A DNA stretch of 33,568 nt from a plasmid, in assembly GCF_988242995.1 (NCBI RefSeq), contig NZ_OZ547045.1; one strand, given 5' to 3'. Positions within the stretch are counted from its first letter, which is position 1. Each line of letters opens with the position of its first letter. Below, piece by piece: positions 10,072 through 25,290 of the stretch. Made by a program: the position numbers and the translations under genes. Below the pieces are notes generated by a model. It did not search any database. It was given only the letters and a program-made list of their open reading frames with translations, and was not told the origin of the DNA.

Positions 10072-10725
10072 ATGGACATACTTTCTCTTTTCCCGTCTAA
10101 CCTCATCGCATTATGGGCCGTCTCATTCGGTTTTCTGGCCGTCCTGTATTGGTGGAAAGTCACCGGCAGAAAACGCAGACACAAGCGCAAACAGCAACAG
10201 GCCCGGCGTGTACTCGCAAAAATTCAGACTCTACCGGGGTTCGGCTACAAGATCGCGTATCTCAGAAAGATAGACCCTTTCACCTTTGAAGAATTATTAC
10301 TGGAGGGGTTTGAATCGCATGGCTTCAGAACTATCAGAAACAAGCGCTATACCGGCGATGGAGGCATTGACGGCCAGGTAATCATTGGAAAGGATCGCTA
10401 TCTCATCCAGGCCAAACGCTATGGCGGTCATATCGCTTTACAGCACGTTCAGGAGTTCGATAAGTTGCTTAAACGTCATAATTGTCGCGGTCTGTTTTGC
10501 CATACCGGAAAAACCGGCGCAGGTTCAAAATCAGTTAGCCTTGCCAGTGATCGGATGGAGATTATCAGCGGCCAGCGCCTTATTGATTTACTCACGCCCG
10601 GCAGCTCCTTCACCATCGCAACCGCACCGCAGACAATGATGAGGCGTACCGCAGCAACGCGAGGAACGAACACCATTGTCGAGGAAGCGGATAAAGAAAC
10701 AACCAACAGCATGAGAGTTAATTAA
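10072..10725 (+). CDS. Membrane-anchored Mrr-like (PD-(D/E)xK restriction-endonuclease-fold) protein
   Basis: 217 aa; N-terminal TM helix and poly-basic stretch, then GDGGIDG ... IQAKRY motifs characteristic of the Mrr catalytic domain. Confidence 0.7.
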   Translation: MDILSLFPSNLIALWAVSFGFLAVLYWWKVTGRKRRHKRKQQQARRVLAKIQTLPGFGYKIAYLRKIDPFTFEELLLEGFESHGFRTIRNKRYTGDGGIDGQVIIGKDRYLIQAKRYGGHIALQHVQEFDKLLKRHNCRGLFCHTGKTGAGSKSVSLASDRMEIISGQRLIDLLTPGSSFTIATAPQTMMRRTAATRGTNTIVEEADKETTNSMRVN

Positions 10726-13068: not shown

Positions 13069-13953
13069 GTGACAGATAAATCAGTACCAGCGAAGCAGAT
13101 AAAAACGGTAAACACCGGAATCGCGATTAAAGAGAATCCCCCCAAAGGGGATGATATGGCATTCACCCATTCGATATTGTGTCAAGTTGGCCTCCCCCGC
13201 TCTAAAGTGGATGGCCGGGAGTTCATGAGAAAATCAGGCGATGCCTGGCTAGTTGTCCAGGCCGGCTGGCTTGATGAAGGAAGCGGCCCGGTAGAACAAC
13301 CGATCCCCTACGGCTCAATGCCCCGTTTAGCGCTCGCCTGGGTATCGTCGTATGCACTCCGCAAAAAGACCCGCGAAATACCGATCGGTAAGAGTGCTAA
13401 TGAGTTCCTGCAATTAATGGGTTTATCAGGCGGCGGCAGACAATACAAAACACTACGCGAACAAATGCACGCGCTGGCAGCTTGCCGGTTGCAGTTAGGT
13501 TTTAAAGGTCGTTCTTTCAACGGCCAGCCTGTAGAGCAATTCGATGCCTGGCAGAAAGACGACCAAAGCGGCCAGCTAAGTTTATGGCCGGGCGTAATGA
13601 CCCTTTCAGAAGGGTACTTTAATGGGCTGATTGATAGCGCCGTTCCTCTCGATAACCGCGCTCTGTACGCGCTAAAGGGTTCGGCATTGTCGTTAGATGT
13701 TTATACGTGGCTTGCGCATCGTCTACACCGCATCCAGGGCCGACCGATTAAACTTCACTGGATGAATTTACGGGAGCAGTTTGCGCAAGAGTATATGGGT
13801 AAAGACCCTGACAAAGATTTTAAGAAGAAATTTCTTCCAGCTCTGCGCGACGTACTGACTGTATACCCACAGGCGAAGGTGGATAAAGTCACCGGAGGGA
13901 TATTACTGTATCCGTCTCCCCCACCTATCCCGTTCAAGGAAGGAAAAAAATAG
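13069..13953 (+). CDS. repA: Putative replication initiator (RepA-like)
   Basis: 294 aa; immediately upstream of the iteron array and DnaA boxes, downstream of resolvase. Assignment is mainly by context. Confidence 0.65.
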   Translation: MTDKSVPAKQIKTVNTGIAIKENPPKGDDMAFTHSILCQVGLPRSKVDGREFMRKSGDAWLVVQAGWLDEGSGPVEQPIPYGSMPRLALAWVSSYALRKKTREIPIGKSANEFLQLMGLSGGGRQYKTLREQMHALAACRLQLGFKGRSFNGQPVEQFDAWQKDDQSGQLSLWPGVMTLSEGYFNGLIDSAVPLDNRALYALKGSALSLDVYTWLAHRLHRIQGRPIKLHWMNLREQFAQEYMGKDPDKDFKKKFLPALRDVLTVYPQAKVDKVTGGILLYPSPPPIPFKEGKK

Positions 13954-13975: not shown

Positions 13976-14056
13976 TTCACAGCAATTCCACTGCGATTTT
14001 CTGACCAGATCGGGGTAATGTGAACAAACCTGTAAAAAACCTGTTGAAACATGAAG

Positions 14057-14370
14057 TTATCCACGTACATCCGACCCCCCTGATTACCGTACATCCGACC
14101 CCCCTTGTCGTACATCCGACCCCCTAGCTTTGTACATCCGACCCCCTAAGTCGTACATCCGACCCCCTTTTTTTGTACATCCGACCCCCTATTTTTTGTA
14201 CATTAGACCCCCTGAAAATACGTACATCAGACCCCCCCTAAACCTATAAGGTGATCTCCTGTAGGTTTCCTGTAGTTTGACCGATAGCACTTAACCTATA
14301 AATTTTGCTTCTAAGAGATCAGCCTGTATGAATGCCCTCCGATAATTTATTCAATAAAATCAGTGGATAA
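14057..14370. other. oriV: DnaA-box-like sites flanking the iterons plus an AT-rich stretch
   Basis: TTATCCACG at 14057..14065; AGTGGATAA at 14362..14370; AT-rich 14280..14400. Confidence 0.7.
14065..14240. repeat. Iteron array: 8 direct repeats of GTACATCCGACCCCC at 21-24 bp spacing (last two degenerate)
   Basis: Repeat units begin near 14065, 14089, 14110, 14132, 14153, 14175, 14198 and 14222. Confidence 0.85.
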
Positions 14371-14713
14371 AATAATAAATCGAATAATTTAAGTTCAGTG
14401 TGTACGTGCCAATATCAGCAGCGGGAGCCTTTGCGCTTCCTCGCTTTTGTTGTTCGTTCCTCGCGTTGCTGCGGTACGCCTCAACAAAAGACTGCGGCGA
14501 GCGCTGCGATCTCTCAGGTAACAGATTGGGATTTAGTGCAAAGGGGGGAGGTAAAAAAGAGTGAGGCCCATCACCGGCAAGTAATGGGCCTCTGTCTTTC
14601 CTGCGAAGGAGCAGATTAGACGTTGTAAGAAGTATAGACGAAAGCAGTGTGGTATTGAAAGGGGATTCAGAGCGCCCTATATTTAATCATCAATACATCA
14701 ATTTTGGTGACTT

Positions 14714-15133
14714 ATGAAAAAAACGCTATTGAGCCTAACCCTGTTAGCTACCACCTGTCAGGCAAGCGCCCAGCCTTGCACAGTGATCTTTGAAAATGGT
14801 CAGTTAATTACGTTACCGGCGGCTGTCACTCAGGCAGACCAGGTGAAAGGGCTATCTGGTGATAATCACAACACCGGCTTAATCCTGGCATGGAACACAG
14901 CAGAACCCCGCGCAGTCTGGATGAAAAACACACCGAATCCACTTACAGCGGCGTTTATCAGTGCAAATGGCGTAATCCAGAGCGTTCAGGATATGCAGCC
15001 CAACAGCGACACCGCGCATTCATCCCTCCACCCGACCATAGCAATCATTGAGATGAGGACGGAAAAATTTAAACAGTTCAAATTATCAAAAGGCGACAAA
15101 GTCATTTCCAGCCAATGTTTCCCCCTCAAATAA
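14714..15133 (+). CDS. Hypothetical secreted protein
   Basis: 139 aa, signal peptide with ASA cleavage motif; no family recognised. Confidence 0.5.
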   Translation: MKKTLLSLTLLATTCQASAQPCTVIFENGQLITLPAAVTQADQVKGLSGDNHNTGLILAWNTAEPRAVWMKNTPNPLTAAFISANGVIQSVQDMQPNSDTAHSSLHPTIAIIEMRTEKFKQFKLSKGDKVISSQCFPLK

Positions 15134-15245
15134 CGCCTCAGAACCCCGTAGAGCCATTCAATCAGAAAAAAGCGGCCTCATGTACAGCTCAACCAAAATA
15201 GCCGCTTACAGAGCCATACAGCGCGTATATAACCAATATCGCCCG

Positions 15246-15690
15246 GCGGCACCGGCGCTAACGTGCCTGTAGGGGCGCTGGCCGCGCTGCGGCCATCCCC
15301 CCAACACCCGGATAAATCGCGCCCGGCCCGTCGCTACGCGCCAGCCCGCCCGCTCAACCGGGCCGTTGTGACGGGCCACTGTTCCGGCAGCGGCATCGTG
15401 TGACAGCCCGCTAAAACCGGCTTTGCAGGGAGGGGGTGGGCGCGTCTCCCGGTTTGATCCCGCAAGGCCCGGCAATTTGACCACGTCGCCCAGGTTGAGA
15501 TCGGCGCAGTTGCCTTTTATTTGTCGGCATCGGCGCTAAATTTAAGTAAATTTATCGTACTATATAATGATACTTAAAGTTGACTTTTGAGGGGGAAAAG
15601 CCTATACTTTATTTACGGTTAGCAATGGTGCTGACCGACCCGGAACCAGTGGCGGCAACCGCTCCGGGGAACTTGCGAAGGGGGCAAGAA
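15246..15690. repeat. CUP-like GC-rich repeat, copy A (5'-truncated; lacks the first ~198 bp of copies B and C)
   Basis: Near-identical to 18515..18959 and 20672..21113. Confidence 0.85.
15580..15636 (+). promoter_or_regulatory. Cassette promoter P1 (TTGACT-17-TATACT) with leader hairpin GGTTAGCAATGGTGCTGACC
   Basis: -35 at 15580..15585, -10 at 15603..15608, inverted repeat at 15617..15636. Confidence 0.7.
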
Positions 15691-15960
15691 ATGAATTTAA
15701 CCACACTGCTTAAAAAGCATTTTGATATTGAGGAATGTACAGATGTAGACCCTATGGTAAACCGGGAGGTTTACGCCATATGGGTTTATGAAAAAGGCGA
15801 GGATTGCGAGCCGCTTTTAATCCTCAAAGATGCTCAGGATGTTATGGGCGTAGACGGCTGGCTTGTCGGGAATATCTATTCCACGTTGCAACATGGCTTA
15901 TTGCTTCAGCATGAAGAACTGAAAATGATGATCCGAAACGGCGAGATTAAGAGCCGTTAA
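15691..15960 (+). CDS. Hypothetical small protein (first gene after cassette P1)
   Basis: 89 aa; ATG 10 nt after the conserved CTGCGAAGG leader end; ORF track shows a longer frame whose upstream part lies in the repeat. Confidence 0.6.
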   Translation: MNLTTLLKKHFDIEECTDVDPMVNREVYAIWVYEKGEDCEPLLILKDAQDVMGVDGWLVGNIYSTLQHGLLLQHEELKMMIRNGEIKSR

Positions 15961-15970
15961 ATGTTTATGC

Positions 15971-16048
15971 GGTCGGCAATGGTGCCGACCGGCCCGGAAT
16001 CAGCGGCGGCAACCGCTCCGGGCAAACTGCGAAGGTACAGAGGCTAAT
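15971..16048 (+). promoter_or_regulatory. Promoter-less copy of the cassette leader (both hairpins plus RBS) in the intercistronic gap
   Basis: GGTCGGCAATGGTGCCGACC (15971..15990), CCCGGAATCAGCGGCGGCAACCGCTCCGGG (15993..16022), CTGCGAAGG, then ATG 16049. Confidence 0.6.
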
Positions 16049-16264
16049 ATGTCAGTAAAAGATTTCTCCCCTACCCTGGAAATTAAATTCCATCGTCGCC
16101 GCTGGCGTATCATGGCTGGATGCTCAAGCCTGGCGTCGTTCCGCTCCGAGCAGGACGCGATTGATGCGCTCAATAAGCGGCGCTCATTCTATGAATATTG
16201 GGCCGGTTCTGCCGGTGTCCAGGCAGAGAACACCGAGCCGGTGATAGTCCACATAACCTATTGA
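16049..16264 (+). CDS. Hypothetical small protein
   Basis: 71 aa; preceded by the leader-only cassette. Confidence 0.55.
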   Translation: MSVKDFSPTLEIKFHRRRWRIMAGCSSLASFRSEQDAIDALNKRRSFYEYWAGSAGVQAENTEPVIVHITY

Positions 16265-16341
16265 ACACTTTTAAAGCCCGTAAACCGGGCTTTTTTAGTC
16301 TTTAAAGTACAATTAAAAGTAAAAAATAATGATACCAATAG

Positions 16342-16399
16342 TTGACTTATGGAGGGTGAACACCTATACTTTATTCATCGGTTAGCAATAGTGCTGACC
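16342..16399 (+). promoter_or_regulatory. Cassette promoter P2 (TTGACT-17-TATACT) with leader hairpin
   Basis: -35 at 16342..16347, -10 at 16365..16370, GGTTAGCAATAGTGCTGACC at 16380..16399. Confidence 0.7.
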
Positions 16400-16453
16400 G
16401 GCCCGGAACCAGCGGCGGCAACCGCTCCGGGCAAACTGCGAAGGAGTAATATT

Positions 16454-17281
16454 ATGTTATCTAGCCGTTTTCGTTCTGCAAATATCCTGCGTTCTGACCG
16501 CCCTCTTAACGATGATCAAATCATGCGTTATGCCCCGTCTATCTTTGCAACTGAAGCGCATGAAAGCCGCTCTGACCGGTACGCTTACATTGCGACCAGC
16601 GAAGTGTTAAACGGTTTGCGTGATAACGGTTTTCATCCGTTTATGGTTTGTCAGACTCGCGTTCGCAACCTGGATAAGCGCGAACACACCAAGCACATGA
16701 TCCGTCTGCGTCATGCCGGGCAAATTAACGGTACAGAAGCGAAGGAAATCATTTTGCTTAACTCGCACGATGGCAGCAGCAGCTATCAAATGCTGGCCGG
16801 TGTATTCCGTTTCGTTTGCCATAACGGTTTAGTGTGTGGTGATACGGTAGCGGATATTCGTATTCCCCATAAAGGCGATGTTACCGAGCGCGTTATTGAA
16901 GGGGCATTTGAGGTGCTGGATCAGTTTGATATGGTTGAAAGCCATATGGAATCTATGAAGTCTGTAACGCTGGATGCGCTGGAGAAGCGTATTTTTGCAG
17001 AAGCGGCGTTAGCACTGCGTTATGACGAACAAAAAGACGGCCCCGCACCAATCGCCGCTAGCCAGCTCCTTGAGGCGCGCCGTTTTGAAGATCGCAAAGA
17101 TGATTTATGGACAACGTTTAACCGCGTACAGGAAAACATTATCCGTGGTGGTTTGAGCGCCAGAACCAAACAGGGGAAATCAACCCGTACCCGCGCCGTA
17201 ACTGGTATGGATAAAGATACGTCTTTAAACCGCGCTTTATGGATTCTCAGCGAGCGCATGAATGAAATTAAAGCCGCTTAA
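16454..17281 (+). CDS. Conserved plasmid leading-region protein, possibly DUF932-type (family name uncertain)
   Basis: 275 aa; ATG after the conserved leader; located immediately upstream of ssb. Confidence 0.6.
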
Positions 17282-17289
17282 TGGCAAAT

Positions 17290-17315
17290 GCCCCGCTTAC
17301 CGGCGGGGCTTTTAT
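17290..17315 (+). terminator. Intrinsic terminator / attenuator between the upstream gene and ssb
   Basis: GCCCCGCttaccgGCGGGGC hairpin followed by TTTTAT. Confidence 0.55.
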
Positions 17316-17337
17316 CAACCCGAAAAAGGTGATTATC

Positions 17338-17838
17338 ATGGCTTCAAGAGGTGTTAATAAAGTAATTCTGGTCGGCAATTTAGGCCAAGATCCTGAAGTG
17401 CGTTATATGCCGAACGGCGGCGCGGTTGCCAACATTACGCTAGCCACGTCAGAAAGCTGGCGCGACAAGCAGACCGGCGAAATGAAAGAACAAACGGAAT
17501 GGCATCGCGTTGTATTATTCGGCAAGCTGGCAGAGGTCGCCGGGGAATATCTGCGCAAGGGTTCGCAGGTGTACATTGAGGGCCAGCTCAGAACACGTAA
17601 ATGGACAGATCAAGCTGGCGTGGACAAGTACACTACAGAGGTTGTCGTTAACGTTGGCGGCACTATGCAGATGTTAGGCGGTCGCCAGCAAAACGGCTCT
17701 CAGCCAGGTAATAATGAATGGGGCCAGTCGCAGCAGCCGCAAGGCGGCCAGCAGTTCAGCGGCCAGCCACAGAACACCGGCGCAGCGCCAGCGGCAGGAA
17801 ATGAGCCGCCTCCTTTTGATGATGATATTCCGTTTTAG
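17338..17838 (+). CDS. ssb: Single-stranded DNA-binding protein
   Basis: 166 aa; OB-fold N-terminus ([43 protein letters not shown]), Gly/Gln-rich linker, acidic C-terminal tail DDDIPF. Confidence 0.95.
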
Positions 17839-17961
17839 CCCTGATAAATATTTAAATGTAAATTTATTTACAGATTTATCTAAATAAATAACCGTTTTAG
17901 AGTTAACCTTCTGTAATTATTGATTAAATCGGCCCGTTTTCGGGCCGTAATGAGGTAAAAA

Positions 17962-18264
17962 ATGGCAGTAGAACGCATTTCCCCTGAAGAATGGCAGCGC
18001 ATCGCACCGGCATTGCGTACATGCAGCCAGGTAACGATCGATATGGCTTATGCCGTACTGGTTGATGGCCGTAAACAAGTAGATGTGGCGTCAGAGTTTG
18101 ACCGGTCAAAGCAAACGGTCAATGCGGCTATCAGGCGCGTTACTGCAATTTTTAACGAGGTTATCCCGGAAGATGAGCAGTTAGAATTTGTACAAGTCTG
18201 GTTGCCGCCAGAGCTGGCGAAGCAGGTAAAAGAAATGGCTAAACCGTATCAGAATAAAAAATAA
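17962..18264 (+). CDS. Small HTH transcriptional repressor, KorA/TrfB-like (possible ArdK-type regulator of the cassette promoters)
   Basis: 100 aa; AYAVLVDGRKQVDVASEFDRSKQTVNAAIRRV resembles the KorA HTH region (from memory). Confidence 0.5.
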   Translation: MAVERISPEEWQRIAPALRTCSQVTIDMAYAVLVDGRKQVDVASEFDRSKQTVNAAIRRVTAIFNEVIPEDEQLEFVQVWLPPELAKQVKEMAKPYQNKK

Positions 18265-18316
18265 CAGGAGTTATCGACATGTGTGAGTACGGATTTAAAA
18301 ACTAACTGAAAAAAAT

Positions 18317-18959
18317 CACTTATGGCGTTCCCTGCGGGGCGGGCTTTCGTGCTGCGCATCGAGCCAGGCAAGCTGTCTCGCCCCTTCGGGCTTCAATCCC
18401 TAACGCCTCCGGGCTGTCGCCCTCCGCGCTCCGCTTGACCCCCACGCCCTGCGCCGGACTTGCCCCGCCTACGGCGGCCCCGCCCCTCCGGGGTGGCTTC
18501 GCCATCCTCTGCCAGCGGCACCGGCGCTAACGTGCCTGTAGGGGCGCTGGCCGCGCTGCGGCCATCCCCCCAACACCCGGATAAATCGCGCCCGGCCCGT
18601 CGCTACGCGCCAGCCCGCCCGCTCAACCGGGCCGTTGTGACGGGCCACTGTTCCGGCAGCGGCATCGTGTGACAGCCCGCTAAAACCGGCTTTGCAGGGA
18701 GGGGGTGGGCGCGTCTCCCGGTTTGATCCCGCAAGGCCCGGCAATTTGACCACGTCGCCCAGGTTGAGATCGGCGCAGTTGCCTTTTATTTGTCGGCATC
18801 GGCGCTAAATTTAAGTAAATTTATCGTACTATATAATGATACTTAAAGTTGACTTTTGAGGGGGAAAAGCCTATACTTTATTTATCGGTTAGCAATGGTG
18901 CTGACCGACCCGGAACCAGCGGCGGCAACCGCTCCGGGCAATCTGCGAAGGTGGGAATT
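18317..18959. repeat. CUP-like repeat, full copy B (GC-rich body ~530 bp plus promoter/leader)
   Basis: Near-identical to 20474..21113. Confidence 0.9.
18849..18906 (+). promoter_or_regulatory. Cassette promoter P3 (TTGACT-17-TATACT) with leader hairpin
   Basis: -35 at 18849..18854, -10 at 18872..18877, inverted repeat at 18887..18906. Confidence 0.7.
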
Positions 18960-19268
18960 ATGAATACTTTCAACGCTGACAAAATCCGCTCTGAACTGGA
19001 TGTTTTAGCGAAAGAAACAATGCCCGGTTGTGGTCTTATTTACGAGCTGTATCAGCGTCGTTTGAGCGCTGCCATTGATAACTTTGTCGCTACCCTGCCA
19101 GCAGAACAACACGCCCAGGCATTTGAACTGGCCCGCCAGGAGTTTGATTACCTTTCTGCGGAAGAAATTGCTGATGAAATCCGCCGCGACTCAGAAAACG
19201 GCTATTGCAGCCACGGCATTGATCGCAATTGCTGCCCTTTGGGTTGCGGGGATTTGGACGATTATTAA
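18960..19268 (+). CDS. Hypothetical small protein with C-terminal Cys cluster
   Basis: 102 aa; ends ...GYCSHGIDRNCCPLGCGDLDDY; ATG after the conserved leader. Confidence 0.6.
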   Translation: MNTFNADKIRSELDVLAKETMPGCGLIYELYQRRLSAAIDNFVATLPAEQHAQAFELARQEFDYLSAEEIADEIRRDSENGYCSHGIDRNCCPLGCGDLDDY

Positions 19269-19351
19269 TTGACAGGGGGCTATTGCCCCCTACAACCAAA
19301 ACGGGCGGCGGCAACCGCCACTATTTAAACAATCTGCGAAGGATATAGATT

Positions 19352-19774
19352 ATGAGCGCATACGTGGTATCTGATAAATCCATTTCTACTATCGTTAAAA
19401 CTCTGGTTATTGCCGGTACACTTCAACCTGTCGAAGCTGTTTCTTTTGGTCAGATGATGCTTAATCTGAATACTCATTCCGTTAATATTCGCTATCAAGA
19501 AAACAGCCCGGCGCACCCTTTTGAATACAGCGACCCGGAATTAAATATCCATGACCCCAAAACTCAAATGCAGGTGATTGTCTGTATTGATGAATATGAA
19601 TATCAGTCCTGCGAGTTTGCCGAATACTATGAAACGATGGTGCATACAGTCCTAAAAGCCATCAAATCAGCGCTTATGCAGGCTTACACGGATATGTTGC
19701 CTAACCCATCGCAATGGAAAGAAAAAAAGTCCTATGACTTGCCAGGCTACTCAGAAGCTGAATGGGGTTTATGA
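19352..19774 (+). CDS. Hypothetical protein
   Basis: 140 aa; preceded by a partial leader (GGCGGCGGCAACCGCC ... CTGCGAAGG); followed by tandem hairpin terminator. Confidence 0.6.
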   Translation: MSAYVVSDKSISTIVKTLVIAGTLQPVEAVSFGQMMLNLNTHSVNIRYQENSPAHPFEYSDPELNIHDPKTQMQVIVCIDEYEYQSCEFAEYYETMVHTVLKAIKSALMQAYTDMLPNPSQWKEKKSYDLPGYSEAEWGL

Positions 19775-19780
19775 TTGAAC

Positions 19781-19830
19781 GGGGGGGAAATCCCCCCCTT
19801 CTACCTGAAGGGGCTACGCCCCTTTTTTTA
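19781..19830 (+). terminator. Tandem hairpins with T-run
   Basis: GGGGGGGaaatCCCCCCC then AGGGGCtacGCCCCT followed by T7. Confidence 0.7.
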
Positions 19831-19845
19831 TGCCGGTTTTATGCC

Positions 19846-20005
19846 GCTTACTTATGGCGTTCCCTGCGGGCCGGGCTTTCGTGCTGCGCATCGAGCCAGG
19901 CAAGCTGTCTCGCCCCTTCGGGCTTCAATCCCTAACGCCTCCGGGCTTTCGCCCTCCGCGCTCCGCTTGGCCTCCGGGCTTTCGCCCTCCGCGCTTTGCT
20001 TGGCC
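19846..20005. repeat. CUP-like repeat fragment D (left arm only) with an internal 33-bp tandem duplication
   Basis: Matches the left ~125 bp of copies B and C; CCTCCGGGCTTTCGCCCTCCGCGCT(C/T)(C/T)GCTTGG duplicated at 19939..19971 and 19972..20004. Confidence 0.8.
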
Positions 20006-20243
20006 TTTCCAGCCGGTGCCAGCTCCGGGCCGCGAGGATAACCGGCGGGAGGCGAACTGTCCTCCACAGCTCCCCGTTCCGTTGGATGGTCTGCCGTTCC
20101 TCCATTACCGGTATTCCACACTAGCGCGGTGTGGCGTCAATAGTTCGCTTCGCCGCTTCGCGCTATTGACCCCACCCCTTGCGCCAGTGTTACACACCGG
20201 TTGTCGGAAACGACAAACCCTCCAACTACCCTACAGGTGCTTT

Positions 20244-20348
20244 ATGGCCGAAATTCTCCAACTCCTCCCGCCGGTTATCCTCGCTATTGCAGCCCTCATC
20301 ACAGCCATCACCGGGCTAATAAAAGTCCTGAAAAGCAAGAAGAAGTAA
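20244..20348 (+). CDS. Candidate 34-aa hydrophobic peptide
   Basis: MAEILQLLPPVILAIAALITAITGLIKVLKSKKK; AGGTG 5 nt upstream; followed by a hairpin at 20354..20373. Confidence 0.35.
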   Translation: MAEILQLLPPVILAIAALITAITGLIKVLKSKKK

Positions 20349-20352
20349 CGGA

Positions 20353-20380
20353 AAGGGGCGGCAAGCCGCCCCTTTCCCCT
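20353..20380 (+). terminator. Hairpin after the small peptide ORF (weak T-tract)
   Basis: AGGGGCGGCaagCCGCCCCT followed by TTCCCCT. Confidence 0.4.
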
Positions 20381-20473
20381 GCTCCCCTTGCTTACCCTGC
20401 TGTACGATCCGTGGATTTCACAGTTGAATAATTTTTTGTGGTCGCCGTAATTGGCCCCGCTGCGCCAGTCGCT

Positions 20474-21113
20474 TACTTAGGGCGTTCCCTGCGGGCCGGG
20501 CTTTCGTGCTGCGCATCGAGCCAGGCAAGCTGTCTCGCCCCTTCGGGCTTCAATCCCTAACGCCTCCGGGCTTCGCCCTCCGCGCTCCGCTTGGCCCCCA
20601 CGCCCTGCGCCGGACTTGCCCCGCCTACGGCGGCCCCGCCCCTCCGGGGTGGCTTCGCCATCCTCTGCCAGCGGCACCGGCGCTAACGTGCCTGTAGGGG
20701 CGCTGGCCGCGCTGCGGCCATCCCCCCAACACCCGGATAAATCGCGCCCGGCCCGTCGCTACGCGCCAGCCCGCCCGCTCAACCGGGCCGTTGTGACGGG
20801 CCACTGTTCCGGCAGCGGCATCGTGTGACAGCCCGCTAAAACCGGCTTTGCAGGGAGGGGGGGGGCGCGTCTCCCGGTTTGATCCCGCAAGGCCCGGCAA
20901 TTTGACCACGTCGCCCAGGTTGAGATCGGCGCAATTGCCTTTTATTTGTCGGCATCGGCGCTAAATTTAAGTAAATTTACCGTACTATATAATGATACTT
21001 AAAGTTGACTTTTTAGGGGGGAAAATCTATACTTTATTTACGGTTAGCAATGGTGCTGACCGACCCGGAACCAGCGGCGGCAACCGCTCCGGGTAATCTG
21101 CGAAGGAAAATGT
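20474..21113. repeat. CUP-like repeat, full copy C
   Basis: Near-identical to copy B over about 640 bp. Confidence 0.9.
21005..21061 (+). promoter_or_regulatory. Cassette promoter P4 (TTGACT-17-TATACT) with leader hairpin
   Basis: -35 at 21005..21010, -10 at 21028..21033, inverted repeat at 21042..21061. Confidence 0.7.
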
Positions 21114-21395
21114 ATGAATACGACCCTTTTTGTTTTAATCCTTGCCGTAGCTGGCGCGTTGTATCTGCCCTGGCGACTTGTGCGCGATGGTTACAAAGAG
21201 CTTGTACAGATGTGTCTGTTTTGCTCCTGTATCGTCACGCTGGCCGCTGTATATGCCGTGTTGGTCAATCTCAATAACCCACACCCGTTTATGCCTATGT
21301 TTATCGCGGTAACGGCGTTCGGTGCGGTATTTGTGGCTGATTGCGCTTTATCTCTCTGGCTCTATCAGCGTAAAGCTAAGACGGCTAACCACTAA
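21114..21395 (+). CDS. Hypothetical small membrane protein
   Basis: 93 aa with three hydrophobic segments; an overlapping alternative frame from ATG 21110 looks non-protein-like. Confidence 0.55.
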   Translation: MNTTLFVLILAVAGALYLPWRLVRDGYKELVQMCLFCSCIVTLAAVYAVLVNLNNPHPFMPMFIAVTAFGAVFVADCALSLWLYQRKAKTANH

Positions 21396-21405
21396 CCACT
21401 AACTA

Positions 21406-21428
21406 AACCGCCCTGCGGGGCGGTTTTT
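21406..21428 (+). terminator. Rho-independent terminator
   Basis: CCGCCCtgcgGGGCGG hairpin followed by T5. Confidence 0.65.
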
Positions 21429-21449
21429 AACCGTGATACGGGGGCAATT

Positions 21450-21692
21450 ATGGGAAACATCATTTTGATGGCCGAGAAGCTAAAAGGCGCGGTTTCCGAT
21501 GAATATGAAGTGTATGAATTTGAGGGCATGGATGATTTGATCCGGTTTCGTAAGAAATACCCGGAACAAATGAAGTATGAATATTCTTACTGTCTATCTG
21601 GCGGTACGAAAGATTTTCACCATATTGCGCTCGTCGAAGCTGACCATTTTAAGCAGTTCAAAAAGCAGGTTGACCAGTACCAGGCTCGATAA
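21450..21692 (+). CDS. Hypothetical small protein
   Basis: 80 aa, hydrophilic; no motif recognised. Confidence 0.5.
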   Translation: MGNIILMAEKLKGAVSDEYEVYEFEGMDDLIRFRKKYPEQMKYEYSYCLSGGTKDFHHIALVEADHFKQFKKQVDQYQAR

Positions 21693-21773
21693 CCTTGAAC
21701 GGCGCGGCAATACCGCGCTGTTTTTTACCCTCTATTTATGTCTTATTTTAGTATCATATTATGATACTAAATA

Positions 21774-21831
21774 TTGACTTATCAGGCCGCAAAAAGTATA
21801 CTTTATTTATCGGTTAGCAATGGTGCTGACC
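21774..21831 (+). promoter_or_regulatory. Cassette promoter P5 (TTGACT-17-TATACT) with leader hairpin but no second hairpin; upstream palindrome AGTATCAtattaTGATACT
   Basis: -35 at 21774..21779, -10 at 21797..21802, inverted repeat at 21812..21831. Confidence 0.65.
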
Positions 21832-21851
21832 GTATGCGAAGGAGTAAAGTT

Positions 21852-22007
21852 ATGAAAAAATTCATTGGCAACCGTAACGGCAAGGCGGTTTTTCAGGAAG
21901 GTGATCGTGAGTTGGTAGCCGCTTACCAGATGAAATCCTCCCCGATTCCGGTAACGCCACGCAAGCTGAAAGCTGAAATGGATGCTATCGCCGCTACAGC
22001 CCGATAA
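21852..22007 (+). CDS. Hypothetical small protein
   Basis: 51 aa; ATG after GCGAAGGAG RBS of the shortened leader. Confidence 0.45.
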   Translation: MKKFIGNRNGKAVFQEGDRELVAAYQMKSSPIPVTPRKLKAEMDAIAATAR

Positions 22008-22082
22008 TCATTCACCCGCGCCGTTGGCGCGGGTAACTCTCACAGCGGCGGCAACCGCTTTTTTATGCGAAGGAGCAACGCG

Positions 22083-22265
22083 ATGTATCTATCTTTGATG
22101 GAACAAGCACGACAGGCAGAGGAATTGCGCGACTGGAAAACCGCCGCGCAACTCTACACCCAGGCGATGGCCGTTAGTCCAAAAGCCAGAACTATGCGCC
22201 AGCGCCGCGAAAGGCTGTATCTGCAACAGCGCATTGAGTTTTGCGAGCGTAATTCGAGAATGTAA
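22083..22265 (+). CDS. Hypothetical small protein
   Basis: 60 aa; preceded by AGCGGCGGCAACCGCT hairpin, T6 and GCGAAGGAG. Confidence 0.45.
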   Translation: MYLSLMEQARQAEELRDWKTAAQLYTQAMAVSPKARTMRQRRERLYLQQRIEFCERNSRM

Positions 22266-22271
22266 AAAACT

Positions 22272-22304
22272 AAAAAAAACCGCCTCAATCCGGCGGTTTT
22301 TTTT
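22272..22304. terminator. Bidirectional rho-independent terminator between convergent genes
   Basis: A8 ... ACCGCCtcaatccGGCGGT ... T8. Confidence 0.75.
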
Positions 22305-22306
22305 GG

Positions 22307-23074
22307 TTAGGCTGCCTGGTATTCTGCCTTTCCGCAGTGTTCGCCGCCACAGTACAGAATTAGGCCCGGTTTCCCCCAAACGTTGGTATGGCATTTCGGG
22401 CAGGTGTATTTTGTCCGGTTTGATTTATTAACCGGCGTATCCGGTGGCGGGTTTACCAGGGAAAGGGCTTGCGTGATCTCATCATCCAGCTCGCCATTGT
22501 CGCTGTAACCCTCATCATCATCGCCATCATCAACATAACCTTTGCCGTCTGCGCCGGTTGGCGTTGGTGGCGTTGGTTTGTGCGGTGGGAACCTGTCCAG
22601 CCAGCTCAGTTTAAACTCCGTGGTTAGCAACTCCTTGCAGGCTGTATCAAACGGGCCGCCGTCCTCGATGTAGTGGCTCATCGACTCACCGACGCGCTTT
22701 CCTCCGGGCTGGCCGCTGTCGGATGGTATCAGGCCGATGCGCTCCATCATCGCCGCCCACTCTTTATTGTGGTATCCACGGCGTCCCGGTTGGCCGGTGT
22801 GTTGTTGGTACTGGTGAACCATTTCATGCACAAGCGTGGAAAGTGTGTCGCGTATCGTGCGGATCGAGAAATAGACCGGATTCATGGCGATTTCATCAAC
22901 GATTTGGCCGGTTGTGCGGCCAACAAAACGGGCATTTGAGAAATAGCCAAACGTTCGTTTTTCGCGCTGAAGGGTGATTAGGCAGGGCGGCAGCGTACTA
23001 TCAAACAGCCGCTGATTGAAAAATTCGTATGCGCGTTGAAGCTCGTCGTAAGTTTCCTGGGTAGGGATGATCAT
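22307..23074 (-). CDS. SprT-like zinc metalloprotease-domain protein with C-terminal zinc ribbon
   Basis: HEMVHQY (HExxH) motif, acidic linker, CPKCH...YCGGEHCG; start taken at ATG 23074 (TGAGG RBS); ORF track extends to 23113 across the operator repeats. Confidence 0.7.
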   Translation of the reverse strand: MIIPTQETYDELQRAYEFFNQRLFDSTLPPCLITLQREKRTFGYFSNARFVGRTTGQIVDEIAMNPVYFSIRTIRDTLSTLVHEMVHQYQQHTGQPGRRGYHNKEWAAMMERIGLIPSDSGQPGGKRVGESMSHYIEDGGPFDTACKELLTTEFKLSWLDRFPPHKPTPPTPTGADGKGYVDDGDDDEGYSDNGELDDEITQALSLVNPPPDTPVNKSNRTKYTCPKCHTNVWGKPGLILYCGGEHCGKAEYQAA

Positions 23075-23095
23075 AGCGGCCTCATAAATTAATTT

Positions 23096-23141
23096 CTGGA
23101 TTGTGCAATCCATTTTATTGCTTATGGATTGTGCAATCCAC
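23096..23141. promoter_or_regulatory. Two copies of the palindrome GGATTGTGCAATCC in the promoter region upstream of the SprT-like gene
   Basis: Copies at 23098..23111 and 23126..23139; the same 14-mer occurs three times inside the stbA-like gene. Confidence 0.6.
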
Positions 23142-23149
23142 TTTTATTT

Positions 23150-23233
23150 TGGGCGTTCCCTGCGGGCGGGCTTTCGTGCTGCGCATCGAGCCAGGCAAGC
23201 TGTCTCGACCCTTCGGGCGTCAATCCCTAACGC
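23150..23233. repeat. Isolated 84-bp left-end module of the CUP-like repeat (copy E)
   Basis: GGGCGTTCCCTGCGGGCGGGCTTTCGTGCTGCGCATCGAGCCAGGCAAGCTGTCTCGACCCTTCGGGCGTCAATCCCTAACGC matches the first 84 bp of copies B, C and D. Confidence 0.8.
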
Positions 23234-23242
23234 AATCCAGGC

Positions 23243-23269
23243 AAAAAAAAGCGGCCCGCATGGGGCCGC
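23243..23269 (-). terminator. Rho-independent terminator of the minus-strand stb-like operon
   Basis: On the minus strand GCGGCCCcatgcGGGCCGC followed by T8. Confidence 0.7.
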
Positions 23270-23287
23270 TTCCGGTCAGGCTTTTTA

Positions 23288-23656
23288 TCAGTGCAGCAGG
23301 AACGTTATAGCCGCCGCGCCGAGCGCTCCACCAACAAAGGAACAGACAACCGTGATAATCAGTATCTGCCTGATAAGCGCTTTCGAAAACCCTGTATGCG
23401 CCCCGGCCAGACGTTCAAAAAATTGTTCGCTAACCTTCTGCTCCTTCTTCAGAGTGTTGACCAGCTCGCGCTGGCTTGCGATCACTTCTGTTTTCGCAGT
23501 CTCCGATGATTTTGCTATCGCGTCGGAGGCTTTATCCAGCCGTTCTATTGCTTCGGTAACGCTTACACTTACACTTTCCAGTTTTGAGGTGATTTCTTTA
23601 GCATCGCCTAAAAACCAGTCCATCAGGACATCTAATTTATCAGGTTGCTTTTCCAT
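23288..23656 (-). CDS. Hypothetical coiled-coil protein with C-terminal TM anchor (third gene of the stb-like operon)
   Basis: 122 aa; helical N-terminal part, hydrophobic C-terminus. Confidence 0.55.
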   Translation of the reverse strand: MEKQPDKLDVLMDWFLGDAKEITSKLESVSVSVTEAIERLDKASDAIAKSSETAKTEVIASQRELVNTLKKEQKVSEQFFERLAGAHTGFSKALIRQILIITVVCSFVGGALGAAAITFLLH

Positions 23657-24380: not shown

Positions 24381-24815
24381 TTAGAAACCTTTCTTATTAC
24401 CTACGCTACCTTTGAATGAGGTTGCGACTTTCTTTGCCTCATCACCAATTTTTTTAAAATCGGTATCGGATAAAAATTCTTTGTTCCCGCCCATATCCTC
24501 AACTAATTTTTCTGGTTCTGGATTGTGCAATCCAGTTTCCACCGGTTCCGCTTTCTCCTGCTCTTTTGGATTGTGCAATCCAGTATTTACCGTACTTTCT
24601 GGATTGTGCAATCCACCTTTTTTGCGTTTCAATCTTGCCCGGTACAAGGCCATATCTAACGCTTTCACAGTCACAGAAAAGCTGTATTCACTATCAAGAA
24701 GTTGAGCAATTTCTTGCCTACTAATACCCTTGTCTAACAAACCTTCAATCTCATCAAGACGCGCTCTTACAGCCGCAGCGAGATTGCGAGGTTCCAGTAA
24801 AAGGTCTTTTTTCAT
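24381..24815 (-). CDS. stbA: StbA-like DNA-binding protein with N-terminal HTH and C-terminal GLHNP repeats
   Basis: 144 aa; first gene of the operon divergent from oriT; three in-frame GLHNP repeats encoded by palindromic 14-mers. Confidence 0.5.
   Translation of the reverse strand: MKKDLLLEPRNLAAAVRARLDEIEGLLDKGISRQEIAQLLDSEYSFSVTVKALDMALYRARLKRKKGGLHNPESTVNTGLHNPKEQEKAEPVETGLHNPEPEKLVEDMGGNKEFLSDTDFKKIGDEAKKVATSFKGSVGNKKGF
24518..24616. repeat. Three intragenic copies of the operator-like palindrome (C)TGGATTGTGCAATCCA(G)
   Basis: Copies at 24518..24535, 24566..24583 and 24599..24616; spacings 48 and 33 bp. Confidence 0.85.
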
Positions 24816-24839: not shown

Positions 24840-25290
24840 CTATATGGCAGCCTGTTTTAGCTGTCAATCGGTTTTTGTAGTATTTCAGTAGTATTCCTGT
24901 AGTAATTCAGTAGTAACGCTTGTCGATACCGCTCATTTTTGTAGTATATCTGTAGTAATGGCTATTTCAGTTTGTAGTATTTTAGTAGTAATTCAGTAGT
25001 ATCGGTGTAGAAAACTTTCATGCAAGCATGAAAGTGGTGAATGTGAACGCTTTTTGAGCGTTTTATGCGTGTGTAAGACCTGTTTCTCCCTTAAAAAAGG
25101 CGTGTTATGGTATCCCTTAATGGCTATACACCATACGCAATTACGATTTTCATCGTAAATGCTTGAAAACAAAACAAATTATTCTAATTTGTGTTTTCAT
25201 ATGTAATACACTACGTATTACATATGTGTGTCTAAGCCGCATATATGCTAGATTTAACTGTATTACATCGGTATTACATCAAGGAAACCC
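24840..25290. other. oriT region: 11-bp direct repeats, inverted repeats and a putative nic site
   Basis: About 10 copies of (T/A)GTAGTA(T/A)(T/A)nn in 24876..25010; IR ACTTTCATGCaaGCATGAAAGT (25014..25035); IR CATATGTAATACactacGTATTACATATG (25198..25226) followed by GTGTGTCT|AAGCC. Confidence 0.65.

Follow-up and report, generated by a model that had tools for sequence, protein, structure and literature searches.

A 33,568-nt stretch of plasmid DNA (contig NZ_OZ547045.1 of assembly GCF_988242995.1; hereafter the window) contains five closely similar promoter–leader cassettes, each placed in front of small genes. What are these cassettes, what controls them, and what might read the leader that they have in common? 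We conclude that they are very probably the promoter-proximal ends of CUP (conserved upstream repeat) elements on an IncN-family conjugative plasmid, and that they make up a negative-feedback regulon of the repressor ArdK. A regulon of this kind is already known, from IncN CUPs and the ArdK system of IncW plasmids; the one described here is that of a divergent IncN lineage. The leader is predicted to form a two-hairpin RNA, and a lone copy of its motifs, close to oriV, may specify an antisense RNA directed against it.

The five promoters and the repeats that they end

The hexamers TTGACT and TATACT, separated by 17 nt, occur together exactly five times in the window, always on the plus strand (at 15580, 16342, 18849, 21005 and 21774), as an earlier sequence-only reading of this DNA had claimed. 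Each promoter agrees with the sigma-70 consensus at 10 of 12 positions. With the spacer allowed to vary from 16 to 18 nt, the five occurrences in 33.6 kb compare with a mean of 0.01 in dinucleotide-preserving shuffles, and none of 100 shuffles reached five. A shared leader and ribosome-binding-site (RBS) context, also part of that reading, is present after all five promoters, except that the leader of cassette 5 (21774) is shortened to the first of two hairpins (hairpin 1, below) followed by ATGCGAAGG. The RBS context, (C/T/A)TGCGAAGG, sits 8–14 nt before the ATG; it is CTGCGAAGG exactly at 16436, 18943 and 21098, and takes the variant forms TTGCGAAGG at 15673 and ATGCGAAGG at 21834. In three operons (16027, 19334 and 22065) the same context recurs, without a promoter, before the second gene, and a further leader copy, at 14601, has no open reading frame (ORF) behind it; we refer to the latter as the orphan. 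The "about ten" small ORFs of the earlier account number 11, in five operons.

The cassettes are merely the 3′ ends of longer direct repeats. Three units of ~440–640 bp (about 15243–15681, 18318–18951 and 20475–21106) are 99–100% identical to one another. P2 and P5, the short cassettes, are more diverged (75–79% identity), yet the operator, the two hexamers and their spacing, hairpin 1 and the Shine–Dalgarno (SD) block are retained in both. The core of the earlier account was right, but the full repeat length, the promoter-less copies, the structure of the leader RNA, the operator that adjoins the −35 box and, near oriV, the orphan had escaped it.

That account also proposed an IncN CUP-like regulon, and the backbone of the plasmid bears this out. 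When the region was compared with ~800 matching plasmid records, the closest to the window was pCFSAN004085 (CP074311; 98% identity), typed IncN/MOBF/MPF_T, in which 17962–18264 is annotated as "ArdK family transcriptional regulator" and 18960–19268 as CcgAII. The gene order, resolvase-repA-iterons…sprT-stbCBA-oriT-T4CP-MobF, is that of R46, and the CUP block is placed between repA/oriV and sprT-stbCBA-oriT. Three first genes of operons have counterparts in R46: the ORF at 15691–15960 is 42% identical to ccgD (tblastn, E 2e-15), that at 18960–19268 is 63% identical to CcgAII (E 1e-39), and that at 21114–21395 is 33% identical to CcgC (E 8e-9). The ssb gene matches the NCBIfam SSB family (E 1e-90) and the DUF932 gene matches PHROG 12094. 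Among the small ORFs, searches of NCBIfam and PHROGs matched just SSB, DUF932/phrog_12094 and phrog_2227 (a family of unknown function), and gave no anti-defence assignment.

Alignment to the CUPs of R46 gave a divided result. The GC-rich 5′ part of the long repeats, 110–190 nt, matches three R46 CUPs at 71–80% identity (best E 5e-25), with a second block, 18688–18785, at 71% identity, but the promoter-proximal 130 nt found no match in R46 by pattern search or BLAST, as foreseen in the earlier caveat that these sequences need not match known CUPs. Zero exact-motif matches had at first suggested that the window CUPs are non-homologous to those of R46; short-word BLAST and an alignment of architecture overturned this. 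The promoter-proximal parts of window and R46 share one order: an AT-rich segment with an invariant GTA…TAC, then TTGAC, the −10 box, a hairpin and the RBS. In IncN1 and IncN2 plasmids, several operons of the same orientation each carry a CUP comprising an ArdK site and a promoter (PMC5371602, PMC5027574). Binding by ArdK has been demonstrated by electrophoretic mobility shift assay (PMC6289460). The CUPs of pKM101 exceed 400 bp and are a probable zygotic-induction system (PMC6294495). The CUP regulon of pKM101/R46 goes back to Delver and Belogurov (1997), as that work is cited in PMC5371602, PMC5027574, PMC6289460 and PMC6294495.

The direction of transfer was read from oriT. A candidate nic region was found on the minus strand at ~25121–25165 (Table 1); the pattern match by itself is weak (three mismatches), and the position beside stbA and the inverted-repeat architecture fit the nic region of R388, as we take that region to be arranged. 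In MOBF11 plasmids, the stbABC operon belongs to the leading region (PMC3098194). Given a minus-strand nic region and, in stbABC, a marker of the leading region, we presume that the minus strand is the T-strand. The CUP block would therefore enter the recipient early, P5 first, and the T-strand would be the template of all CUP genes.

ArdK and its predicted operator

The gene at 17962–18264, described earlier as KorA-like, does encode a homologue of ArdK (Pfam KORA, E 4e-12; 36% identity to R46 ArdK, E 2e-23); its product shows no similarity to the IncN protein that bears the name KorA. Where would this repressor act? We surveyed 42 promoters from 13 loci, selected by cassette architecture: the window, an E. 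albertii IncN-like plasmid, R46, IncW pIE321, NAH7, pPHE101, pSDM007, pSN0726-36, pGLE121P3, two P. aeruginosa-group plasmids, pUR_RT652 and pEh60-6. In 40 of these 42, a palindrome of 17–19 bp ends 5–6 nt before the −35 box; the two exceptions are a spurious match (L010:34807) and the promoter of pIE321. The sequence of the palindrome is specific to the lineage: GTACTATATAATGATAC in the window, or AGTATCATA-T-TATGATACT at P5; GTAAATAAATTCCGTAC in R46; TGTAAAATAATATTTTACA in pGLE121P3; CGTCAAATATTGTTTGACG in CP027168; and GGTCAAATTAGATTTGACC in IncP-9-like plasmids. The −35 hexamer recurs, in an 11-bp register, within the right arm of this palindrome, perfectly in several Pseudomonas plasmids and, in the window, as the imperfect direct repeat GATAC(T/C)-N5-TTGACT, with an inverted copy of the half-site further upstream.

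These features resemble what is known of ArdK elsewhere. Crystallography and genetics established that R388 ArdK binds a direct repeat overlapping the −35 box and is also able to bind inverted repeats that are spaced apart, and direct repeats at the −35 box have been noted for the ArdK-like proteins of IncP-9 plasmids (PMC9723621). Its own Pssb is among the five promoters that ArdK represses in R388 (PMC3937220). As part of the CUP/ArdK reading, and with the same high probability, the phylogenetic footprint points to the operator at the −35 box as the site of the ArdK-family (KorA/TrfB-fold) repressor encoded at 17962–18264. The regulon is read as one of negative feedback because the operators of the cassettes would be the site of a repressor encoded at the end of the second operon. 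A promoter scan found no separate consensus promoter before ardK, and there is the ssb-ardK precedent of R388 (PMC3937220); on these grounds, ardK is probably autoregulated via P2, operon 2 being a unit like Pssb-ssb-ardK of R388.

Several points weigh against this interpretation. The homology of the promoter-proximal parts to R46 rests on architecture, because these 130 nt have no detectable BLAST similarity to the R46 CUPs. The GATACT half-site coincides with the −35 hexamer only at ACT, and is less repeat-like than its counterparts in R388, L004 and IncP-9 plasmids. What is said here of transcription starts, and of binding and repression by ArdK, is inferred for this lineage from homology and footprinting. 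Finally, ardK may have a dedicated promoter.

Two further palindromes were observed near such sites. One, TGTAAATTTATTTACA, lies between ssb and ardK (17855–17875) and resembles both AAGTAAATTTAT, just upstream of the long-CUP operators, and the operator of pGLE121P3; it is possibly an additional ArdK (auto)operator or part of an internal promoter region. The other, TTCTCGCACGCGAGAA, is perfectly palindromic. Many IncP-9-like cassettes have it ~25 nt before their ArdK-type operator (for example L008:7010–7030 and L132:10690–10710), and it is absent from the window; it may be the site of a second regulator.

Structure and distribution of the leader RNA

The leader is predicted to fold into two hairpins. 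Hairpin 1 stands at the predicted 5′ end of the mRNA and has a variable stem and a loop that begins GCAAU; it is also found in R46 and IncW plasmids. Hairpin 2 consists of an outer stem, a 5′ bulge, an inner stem (GCGG/CCGC) and a loop, CGGCAA, that is invariant in ~40 leader copies. An SD block, GCGAAGG(AG), likewise invariant, follows 3–6 nt after hairpin 2. Single leader sequences fold as predicted, with z-scores of −2.4 to −3.7. Covariation was counted in gap-free pseudo-alignments of distinct stems. For hairpin 2, 99% of positions are paired and double changes occur in five of nine pairs, a result reached by none of 500 shuffles; slid controls are paired to 59% at most. For hairpin 1, pairing is 92% (versus 64% in shuffles), double changes occur in six of eight pairs, and the covariation score is 0.69 versus 0.22. 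These stem-anchored pseudo-alignments superseded an analysis of the raw leaders by MAFFT and RNAalifold, which misaligned two clades and yielded just eight pairs. One caveat is that the stems were extracted under the hypothesis that they pair, which biases the counts towards structure. The structure is best regarded as a feature of RNA (or of the plus strand) and not of T-strand DNA, because the wobble pairs are U·G on the mRNA strand and would be C·A mismatches on the T-strand.

The full-length promoter plus leader, used as a 154-nt BLAST query, is confined to ~94 IncN-like enterobacterial plasmids. The leader part alone is found in 73 Pseudomonas plasmids, at two to six places in each, and these plasmids have the backbone resolvase-rep…DUF932…TrfB/ArdK-like…ssb…SprT-stbCBA-oriT-T4CP-MobF in common. 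Promoter-less copies, too, occur beyond the window, in R46 (between ccgD and ccgC) and in Pseudomonas plasmids; in these, hairpin 1 is usually replaced by a terminator-like hairpin of the upstream gene. The Rfam covariance models gave no match at the gathering score over the whole window, and only chance-level matches at E up to 5 over 14000–23400, none of them on the leader, the orphan or the CUP module. Motif strings of the leader found no relevant mention in the literature searched, and a recent preprint on leading-region translation is also silent on the motif. Covariation thus supports the leader as a two-hairpin RNA conserved across IncN-like and Pseudomonas (IncP-9-like) MOBF plasmids, for which we found no prior description.

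An orphan copy of the leader motifs near oriV

The orphan copy (14563–14611) lies between the iterons (14089–14240) and a DUF192 gene (14714), ~320 nt beyond the iterons, and its stem is unrelated to those of the leaders. No ORF follows its SD-like block in the sense direction. On the minus strand, the terminator scan called a rho-independent terminator at the second of two predicted stem-loops (SL2), and predicted transcription points towards the iterons. A homologous orphan is present exactly once, in the rep-proximal region, in 10 of 10 related plasmids fetched (the window, L011, L004, L133, L010, L009, NAH7, L132, L135 and pUR_RT652). It also occurs once each in IncN-like records, counted as 108 or as ~93, the latter in step with the 94 records that carry full CUPs. 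Among ~6 lineages the stems are wholly different; the loop core TTGCCG and CTCCTTCGC are invariant. All ten orphans have a −10 box in antisense orientation (TATACT in six, TACAAT in two and TATAAT in two, with A2 and T6 in all), 11–24 nt upstream and in unconserved surroundings. By a rough estimate, the chance of such a hexamer is ~0.08 per lineage and ~1e-7 for six. Candidate −35 boxes match the consensus at 3–4 of 6 positions, at a distance of 16–18 nt.

Each of the predicted antisense RNAs folds into two stem-loops that present both complementary motifs in their loops. The loop of the first (SL1), UCCUUC(GC), is an anti-Shine–Dalgarno sequence, and that of SL2, UUGCCG, is the exact complement of the hairpin-2 loop CGGCAA. 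The SL1 stems are specific to the lineage (GUCU..UCUGC/GCAGG..AGAC, UUUUUGC/GCGAAAAA, GUGUUC/GAACAC and GGUU..CUGC/GCAG..AACC), and two of them, in the window and NAH7, hold U·G pairs that would be C·A on the sense strand. A stem of the SL1 type is missing from the leaders themselves. In pEh60-6, the orphan element is inverted relative to the genes.

FinP/traJ, CopA/CopT and Sok/hok are examples of plasmid antisense RNAs that act by loop–loop kissing at the RBS. It is possible that the orphan specifies another, a trans-acting RNA of ~70 nt (14553–14636, minus strand) whose UUGCCG would kiss the CGGCAA of every leader and whose SL1 loop/5′ segment, CUCCUUCGC, would then pair with the SD block, so that translation of the whole regulon is blocked or decay of its mRNAs set off. 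Such an RNA would extend the CUP/ArdK reading, as a second, post-transcriptional shut-off, and would not exclude it. We put this forward tentatively, at somewhat less than an even chance. The single copy in every plasmid, the loop cores conserved on stems that differ by lineage, the canonical −10 box kept throughout, the minus-strand terminator call, the two-stem-loop fold with its U·G pairs on the antisense strand, the lack of an ORF after the SD-like block and the inverted element of pEh60-6 are all in line with it. Yet the transcript itself is a prediction from sequence, its −35 boxes are weak, and the U-tracts of the Pseudomonas copies are poor; enterobacterial copies have a good terminator. 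Hairpins could form just as well on the sense strand, where the IncP-9-like one could serve as a terminator of the upstream gene. Just 9 nt of the SD block (GCGAAGGAG) are invariant across the leaders within a plasmid, whole-molecule duplex energies do not separate leaders from control 5′ regions, and R46 and IncW plasmids run ArdK regulons with no orphan.

Three lines of analysis were set aside in this connection. RNAduplex energies of the predicted small RNA (sRNA) against leaders and control 5′ regions were left unused, as they are dominated by GC-rich full-length duplexes with huge internal loops. A scan of genome contigs for CTCCTTCGCAG-N10-26-TTGCCG returned 120 loci (L012–L131) from unrelated phyla, with one match each; we attribute these to chance, because a pattern of 17 fixed bases and 17 possible gap lengths, run over 298 Gb, should by our estimate give several hundred random matches. 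The 2 nt before GCGAAGGAG seemed to co-vary between the orphan and the leaders of NAH7, a point that was dropped as evidence when IncP-9-like plasmids proved to mix the variants within one plasmid.

Extended to the MOBF family (IncN-like enterobacterial plasmids and IncP-9-like and other Pseudomonas plasmids), the antisense interpretation has the same tentative standing. One trans-acting sRNA would read the standard leader before most of the establishment and anti-defence genes of the leading region and silence the early regulon on top of ArdK, and new genes could plug into both controls.

The main alternative, which we consider somewhat less likely, is that the leader (its CGGCAA loop and GCGAAGGAG) is read in the sense orientation, either by a protein (a translational repressor of plasmid or host, an RNase, or a ProQ/FinO-like chaperone) or as a 5′ stabiliser or translation-initiation module. 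The orphan would then be a decoy, or a leader that has lost its gene. A module that serves translation or stability gene by gene would fit the presence of the leader before internal cistrons as well, hairpin 1 at the predicted 5′ end recalls known mRNA-stabilising 5′ hairpins, and the orphan motif has the orientation of the leaders in 9 of 10 plasmids. On the other hand, the conserved genes yielded no candidate RNA-binding protein, and a decoy or vestige leaves the antisense −10 box, the orphan-specific SL1 stem and the retention of one copy over ~6 lineages unexplained.

The CUP 5′ module and its relation to Frpo

Upstream of the GC-rich body, long CUPs 3 and 4 begin with a structured 5′ module. 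A 5′ piece of ~126 nt has four copies in the window (18318–18445, 19850–19975, 20475–20600 and 23145–23270). Its closing stem, GGCGTT/AACGCC, has two compensatory changes among the R46 copies. Its central hairpin, between an invariant CATCGAGC and GTCTCG, covaries fully among copies from the window, R46, F-like plasmids, Xanthomonas, Aeromonas and Pseudomonas (stems CAGC/GCTG, CGG/CCG, CGC/GCG, CCCGC/GCGGG and GCCGCC/GGCGGC), with G·U pairs on the plus strand and the invariant core GTGCTGCGCATCGAGCC. The module was matched at 10,282 places in 4,645 plasmid records (IncF, IncN, Pseudomonas, Burkholderia, Xanthomonas and Aeromonas). In an IncFIA (F-like) plasmid, it lies ~545 nt upstream of ssb and of ygeA, that is, at the upstream edges of Frpo2 and Frpo1, whose positions are given in PMC9849209. 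Between window and F-like Frpo, a module of ~75 nt at the upstream edge is 76–77% identical, and there is no match in the hairpin part.

Does this kinship mean that the cassettes are single-stranded DNA (ssDNA) promoters of the Frpo/ssi type, active only while the leading region is single-stranded? The shared module and the T-strand as presumed template of the CUP genes would suit such promoters, but we regard the idea as very improbable. The −35 and −10 boxes form a contiguous, near-consensus duplex promoter, P2 and P5 do without the GC-rich body, and a dedicated repressor whose operator adjoins the −35 box implies control of duplex DNA. Folded as T-strand DNA, 18300–18960 (module, body, promoter and leader) has a z-score of −1.9 and no giant hairpin, versus −9.4 for the F-like Frpo1 region with its known giant hairpin, which argues that the CUP promoters are not of the Frpo type; as plus-strand RNA, the GC-rich body has no significant global fold either (18300–18850, z 0.07). 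In sequence, CUPs and Frpo regions look like positional relatives with a common 5′ module and different promoter devices, a repressor-controlled duplex in one and an ssDNA hairpin in the other. No earlier description of this sharing was found, in a search that reached the original 1997 CUP work through papers that cite it.

That the repeats merely record recent duplication or recombination, and are not regulated in common, is scarcely credible: the three long copies are nearly identical and CUP–CUP recombination is documented in IncN plasmids (PMC5371602, PMC5027574), but the diverged P2 and P5 still have operator, spaced hexamers, hairpin 1 and SD block, and the architecture is kept with compensatory changes in distant plasmids.

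Feature coordinates and neighbouring elements

The features on which the CUP/ArdK reading and its extensions draw are collected in Table 1.

Table 1. Positions in the window of CUP parts, cassettes, operons, leader copies, the candidate antisense RNA and oriT.
Feature	Position	Strand	Details
Orphan anti-leader, candidate ~70-nt antisense sRNA	14553–14636	-	−10 TATACT 14636–14631; from terminator scan, sequence and fold
Orphan, predicted U-tract	14562–14553	-	ACTCTTTTTT
Orphan, predicted SL2	14592–14563	-	GAGGCCCAT-tacTTGCCGgtg-ATGGGCCTC; 9-bp stem, loop tacTTGCCGgtg
Orphan, anti-SD segment within predicted SL1	14611–14601	-	CTCCTTCGCAG, loop UCCUUC(GC)
Long CUP 1 body	15243–15556	+	GC-rich, 5′-truncated, lacks the 5′ module; families D1/D2, 99–100% identical to 18512–18811 and 20668–20967
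Cassette P1	15557–15690	+	Predicted operator GTACTATATAATGATAC 15557–15573; −35 TTGACT 15580–15585; −10 TATACT 15603–15608
Cassette P1, leader	15616–15681	+	Hairpin 1 15616–15637; hairpin 2 15639–15668, loop CGGCAA 15653–15658; TTGCGAAGG 15673–15681
Operon 1 (P1)	15691–16264	+	ccgD-like ORF 15691–15960; orf71 16049–16264; terminator 16273–16293
Promoter-less leader copy, operon 1	15970–16048	+	Hairpin 1 with compensatory changes CGGTCGGC/GCCGACCG
Cassette P2 (short CUP)	16319–16453	+	Predicted operator GTAAAAAATAATGATAC 16319–16335; −35 16342; −10 16365; two-hairpin leader; CTGCGAAGG 16436
Operon 2 (P2)	16454–18264	+	DUF932 gene 16454–17281; ssb 17338–17838; ardK homologue 17962–18264
CUP 5′ module	18318–18445	+	Structured, ~100 nt; family D4
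Long CUP 3, GC-rich body	18446–18825	+	Same sequence at 20601–20981 in long CUP 4
Cassette P3	18826–18959	+	Predicted operator 18826–18842; −35 18849; −10 18872
Cassette P3, leader	18886–18951	+	Hairpin 1 18886–18907; hairpin 2 18909–18938, loop 18923–18928; CTGCGAAGG 18943–18951
Operon 3 (P3)	18960–19825	+	CcgAII homologue 18960–19268; orf140 19352–19774; terminator 19807–19825
Promoter-less partial leader, operon 3	19303–19351	+	GGCGG-CGGCAA-CCGCC; CTGCGAAGG 19334
Cassette P4	20982–21113	+	Predicted operator 20982–20998; −35 21005; −10 21028; two-hairpin leader; CTGCGAAGG 21098
Operon 4 (P4)	21114–21721	+	CcgC-like membrane ORF 21114–21395; orf80 21450–21692; terminator 21704–21721
Cassette P5 (short CUP)	21751–21851	+	Predicted operator, perfect palindrome AGTATCATA-T-TATGATACT 21750–21768; −35 21774; −10 21797
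Cassette P5, leader		+	Hairpin 1 only; ATGCGAAGG 21834
Operon 5 (P5)	21852–22304	+	orf51 21852–22007; orf60 22083–22265; bidirectional terminator 22272–22304
Promoter-less partial leader, operon 5	22044–22082	+	AGCGG-CGGCAA-CCGCT; ATGCGAAGG 22065
oriT nic region (candidate)	about 25100–25165	-	Inverted repeat TTACGAT-gaaa-ATCGTAA, then GTATGGTGT/ATAGCCA; adjoins stbA

Some neighbouring elements deserve mention. The DUF932 gene (16454–17281) has a counterpart, in the position of ygeB, directly 3′ of Frpo1 in F-like plasmids (L138:6953–7774), and it is the first gene after the ArdK-type promoter in nearly all Pseudomonas plasmids compared; it is a core early gene. Between CUP fragments lies a strongly hydrophobic ORF of 34 aa (MAEILQLLPPVILAIAALITAITGLIKVLKSKKK; 20244–20348, plus strand), with the SD sequence AGGTG before it and a strong hairpin behind it (20350–20377); it resembles a small membrane peptide or type I toxin-like gene and has no family match.

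Iterons of the form GTACATCCGACCCCC, ~8 copies at 22-bp spacing (14089–14240), mark oriV downstream of repA (13069–13953). Towards oriT, a 16-bp palindrome, TGGATTGTGCAATCCA, occurs five times in 23084–23144 and 24506–24619, twice in the sprT/stbC intergenic region and three times within the stbA coding sequence. The three copies within stbA encode the peptide repeat TGLHNP; whether they are a DNA site inside the gene of their own regulator is a question that this arrangement raises. Arrays of an 11-bp repeat, (T/C)AGTAGTA(T/A)TT (family D8), lie upstream of stbA at 24870–25015 and are probably StbA-binding repeats beside oriT. In IncW pIE321, the motif TTGCATCAT, which we take to be the R388-type StbA site, overlaps the −10 box of the ArdK-type promoter.

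Proposed course of events and its significance

Taken together, these predictions suggest the following course of events. The incoming T-strand would be the template of the leading-region CUP block, and once the complementary strand is made in a recipient free of repressor, all five promoters would fire. This would amount to zygotic induction of ~11 establishment genes (SSB, DUF932 and the CcgD/AII/C-like proteins among their products), until ArdK accumulates and shuts off the five promoters. Every transcript, and three internal cistrons besides, would carry the common leader as a shared post-transcriptional handle, possibly the target of the orphan antisense RNA.

The regulon itself is textbook, namely the zygotic induction of establishment genes under ArdK in IncN and IncW plasmids, and its confirmation mainly tidies the annotation of ~100 sequenced IncN-like, resistance-associated plasmids in which the small ORFs are all "hypothetical". 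Because the ArdK operator has diversified by lineage at a fixed position, it would offer a natural set of orthogonal repressor/operator pairs. What we did not find described before, in the literature searched, are the two-hairpin leader, the one orphan mirror copy per plasmid and the CUP module held in common with Frpo. Should the antisense RNA be real, it would add an unmodelled post-transcriptional layer to leading-region expression, with a bearing on anti-defence, SOS suppression and the establishment of resistance plasmids, and would provide a single short target for blocking that establishment. The module common to CUP and Frpo connects two leading-region control systems that have been regarded as different.

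Comparison with known systems

Of the systems known, the CUP regulon of R46/pKM101 is the most like that of the window. Both have an IncN replicon, a MOBF/MPF_T backbone, the same position between rep and stb/oriT, ArdK and the CcgD, CcgAII and CcgC homologues; both have repeats of >400 bp, 74–80% identical over the first ~180 nt, that run from a GC-rich body through an AT-rich operator and a TTGACT promoter to a hairpin leader and the RBS; and both have a promoter-less leader copy between genes (ccgD–ccgC in R46). They differ in the −10 box (TATACT in the window, GATAAT in R46) and in the operator half-sites. The window leader has a second hairpin, with the loop CGGCAA, and a GCGAAGG block, whereas R46 has neither; nor does R46 have an orphan antisense copy. 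The cargo is DUF932, ssb and ORFs of unknown function in the window, and ardA, ardB and ardR in R46. Likewise, ardK stands at the end of an operon in the former and behind its own CUPA promoter in the latter.

In IncW R388, too, a KorA-family repressor governs ~5 establishment promoters, that of ssb-ardK included, through an operator at the −35 box, with negative feedback and overshoot (PMC3937220, PMC9723621). IncW promoters have an element like hairpin 1, and one gene has hairpin 2. The R388 operator, however, is a perfect direct repeat of TTGACA, whereas that of the window is imperfect and has an inverted third half-site, and R388 lacks the long GC-rich CUP bodies, the GCGAAGG leader family and the orphan.

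Frpo1 and Frpo2 (ssi) of F and ColIb-P9 resemble the CUPs as leading-region cassettes of ~550–630 bp that use the T-strand as template and drive ssb and DUF932 (ygeB-like) genes (PMC9849209, PMC11541004, PMC12672017). The two have the 5′ module of ~75–100 nt in common and part at the promoter, which in the window is predicted to be an ordinary duplex promoter under a repressor, with no giant T-strand hairpin that rebuilds it.

The candidate antisense RNA, finally, is akin to FinP, CopA and Sok as a predicted RNA of ~70 nt with two stem-loops, the loops of which complement the loop of a target hairpin and the ribosome-binding region. Unlike these, the orphan RNA, if real, would be encoded in trans, 1–7.5 kb from its targets, and would hit ~8 leaders via two short motifs (6 and 9–11 nt) in place of the full complement of one target.

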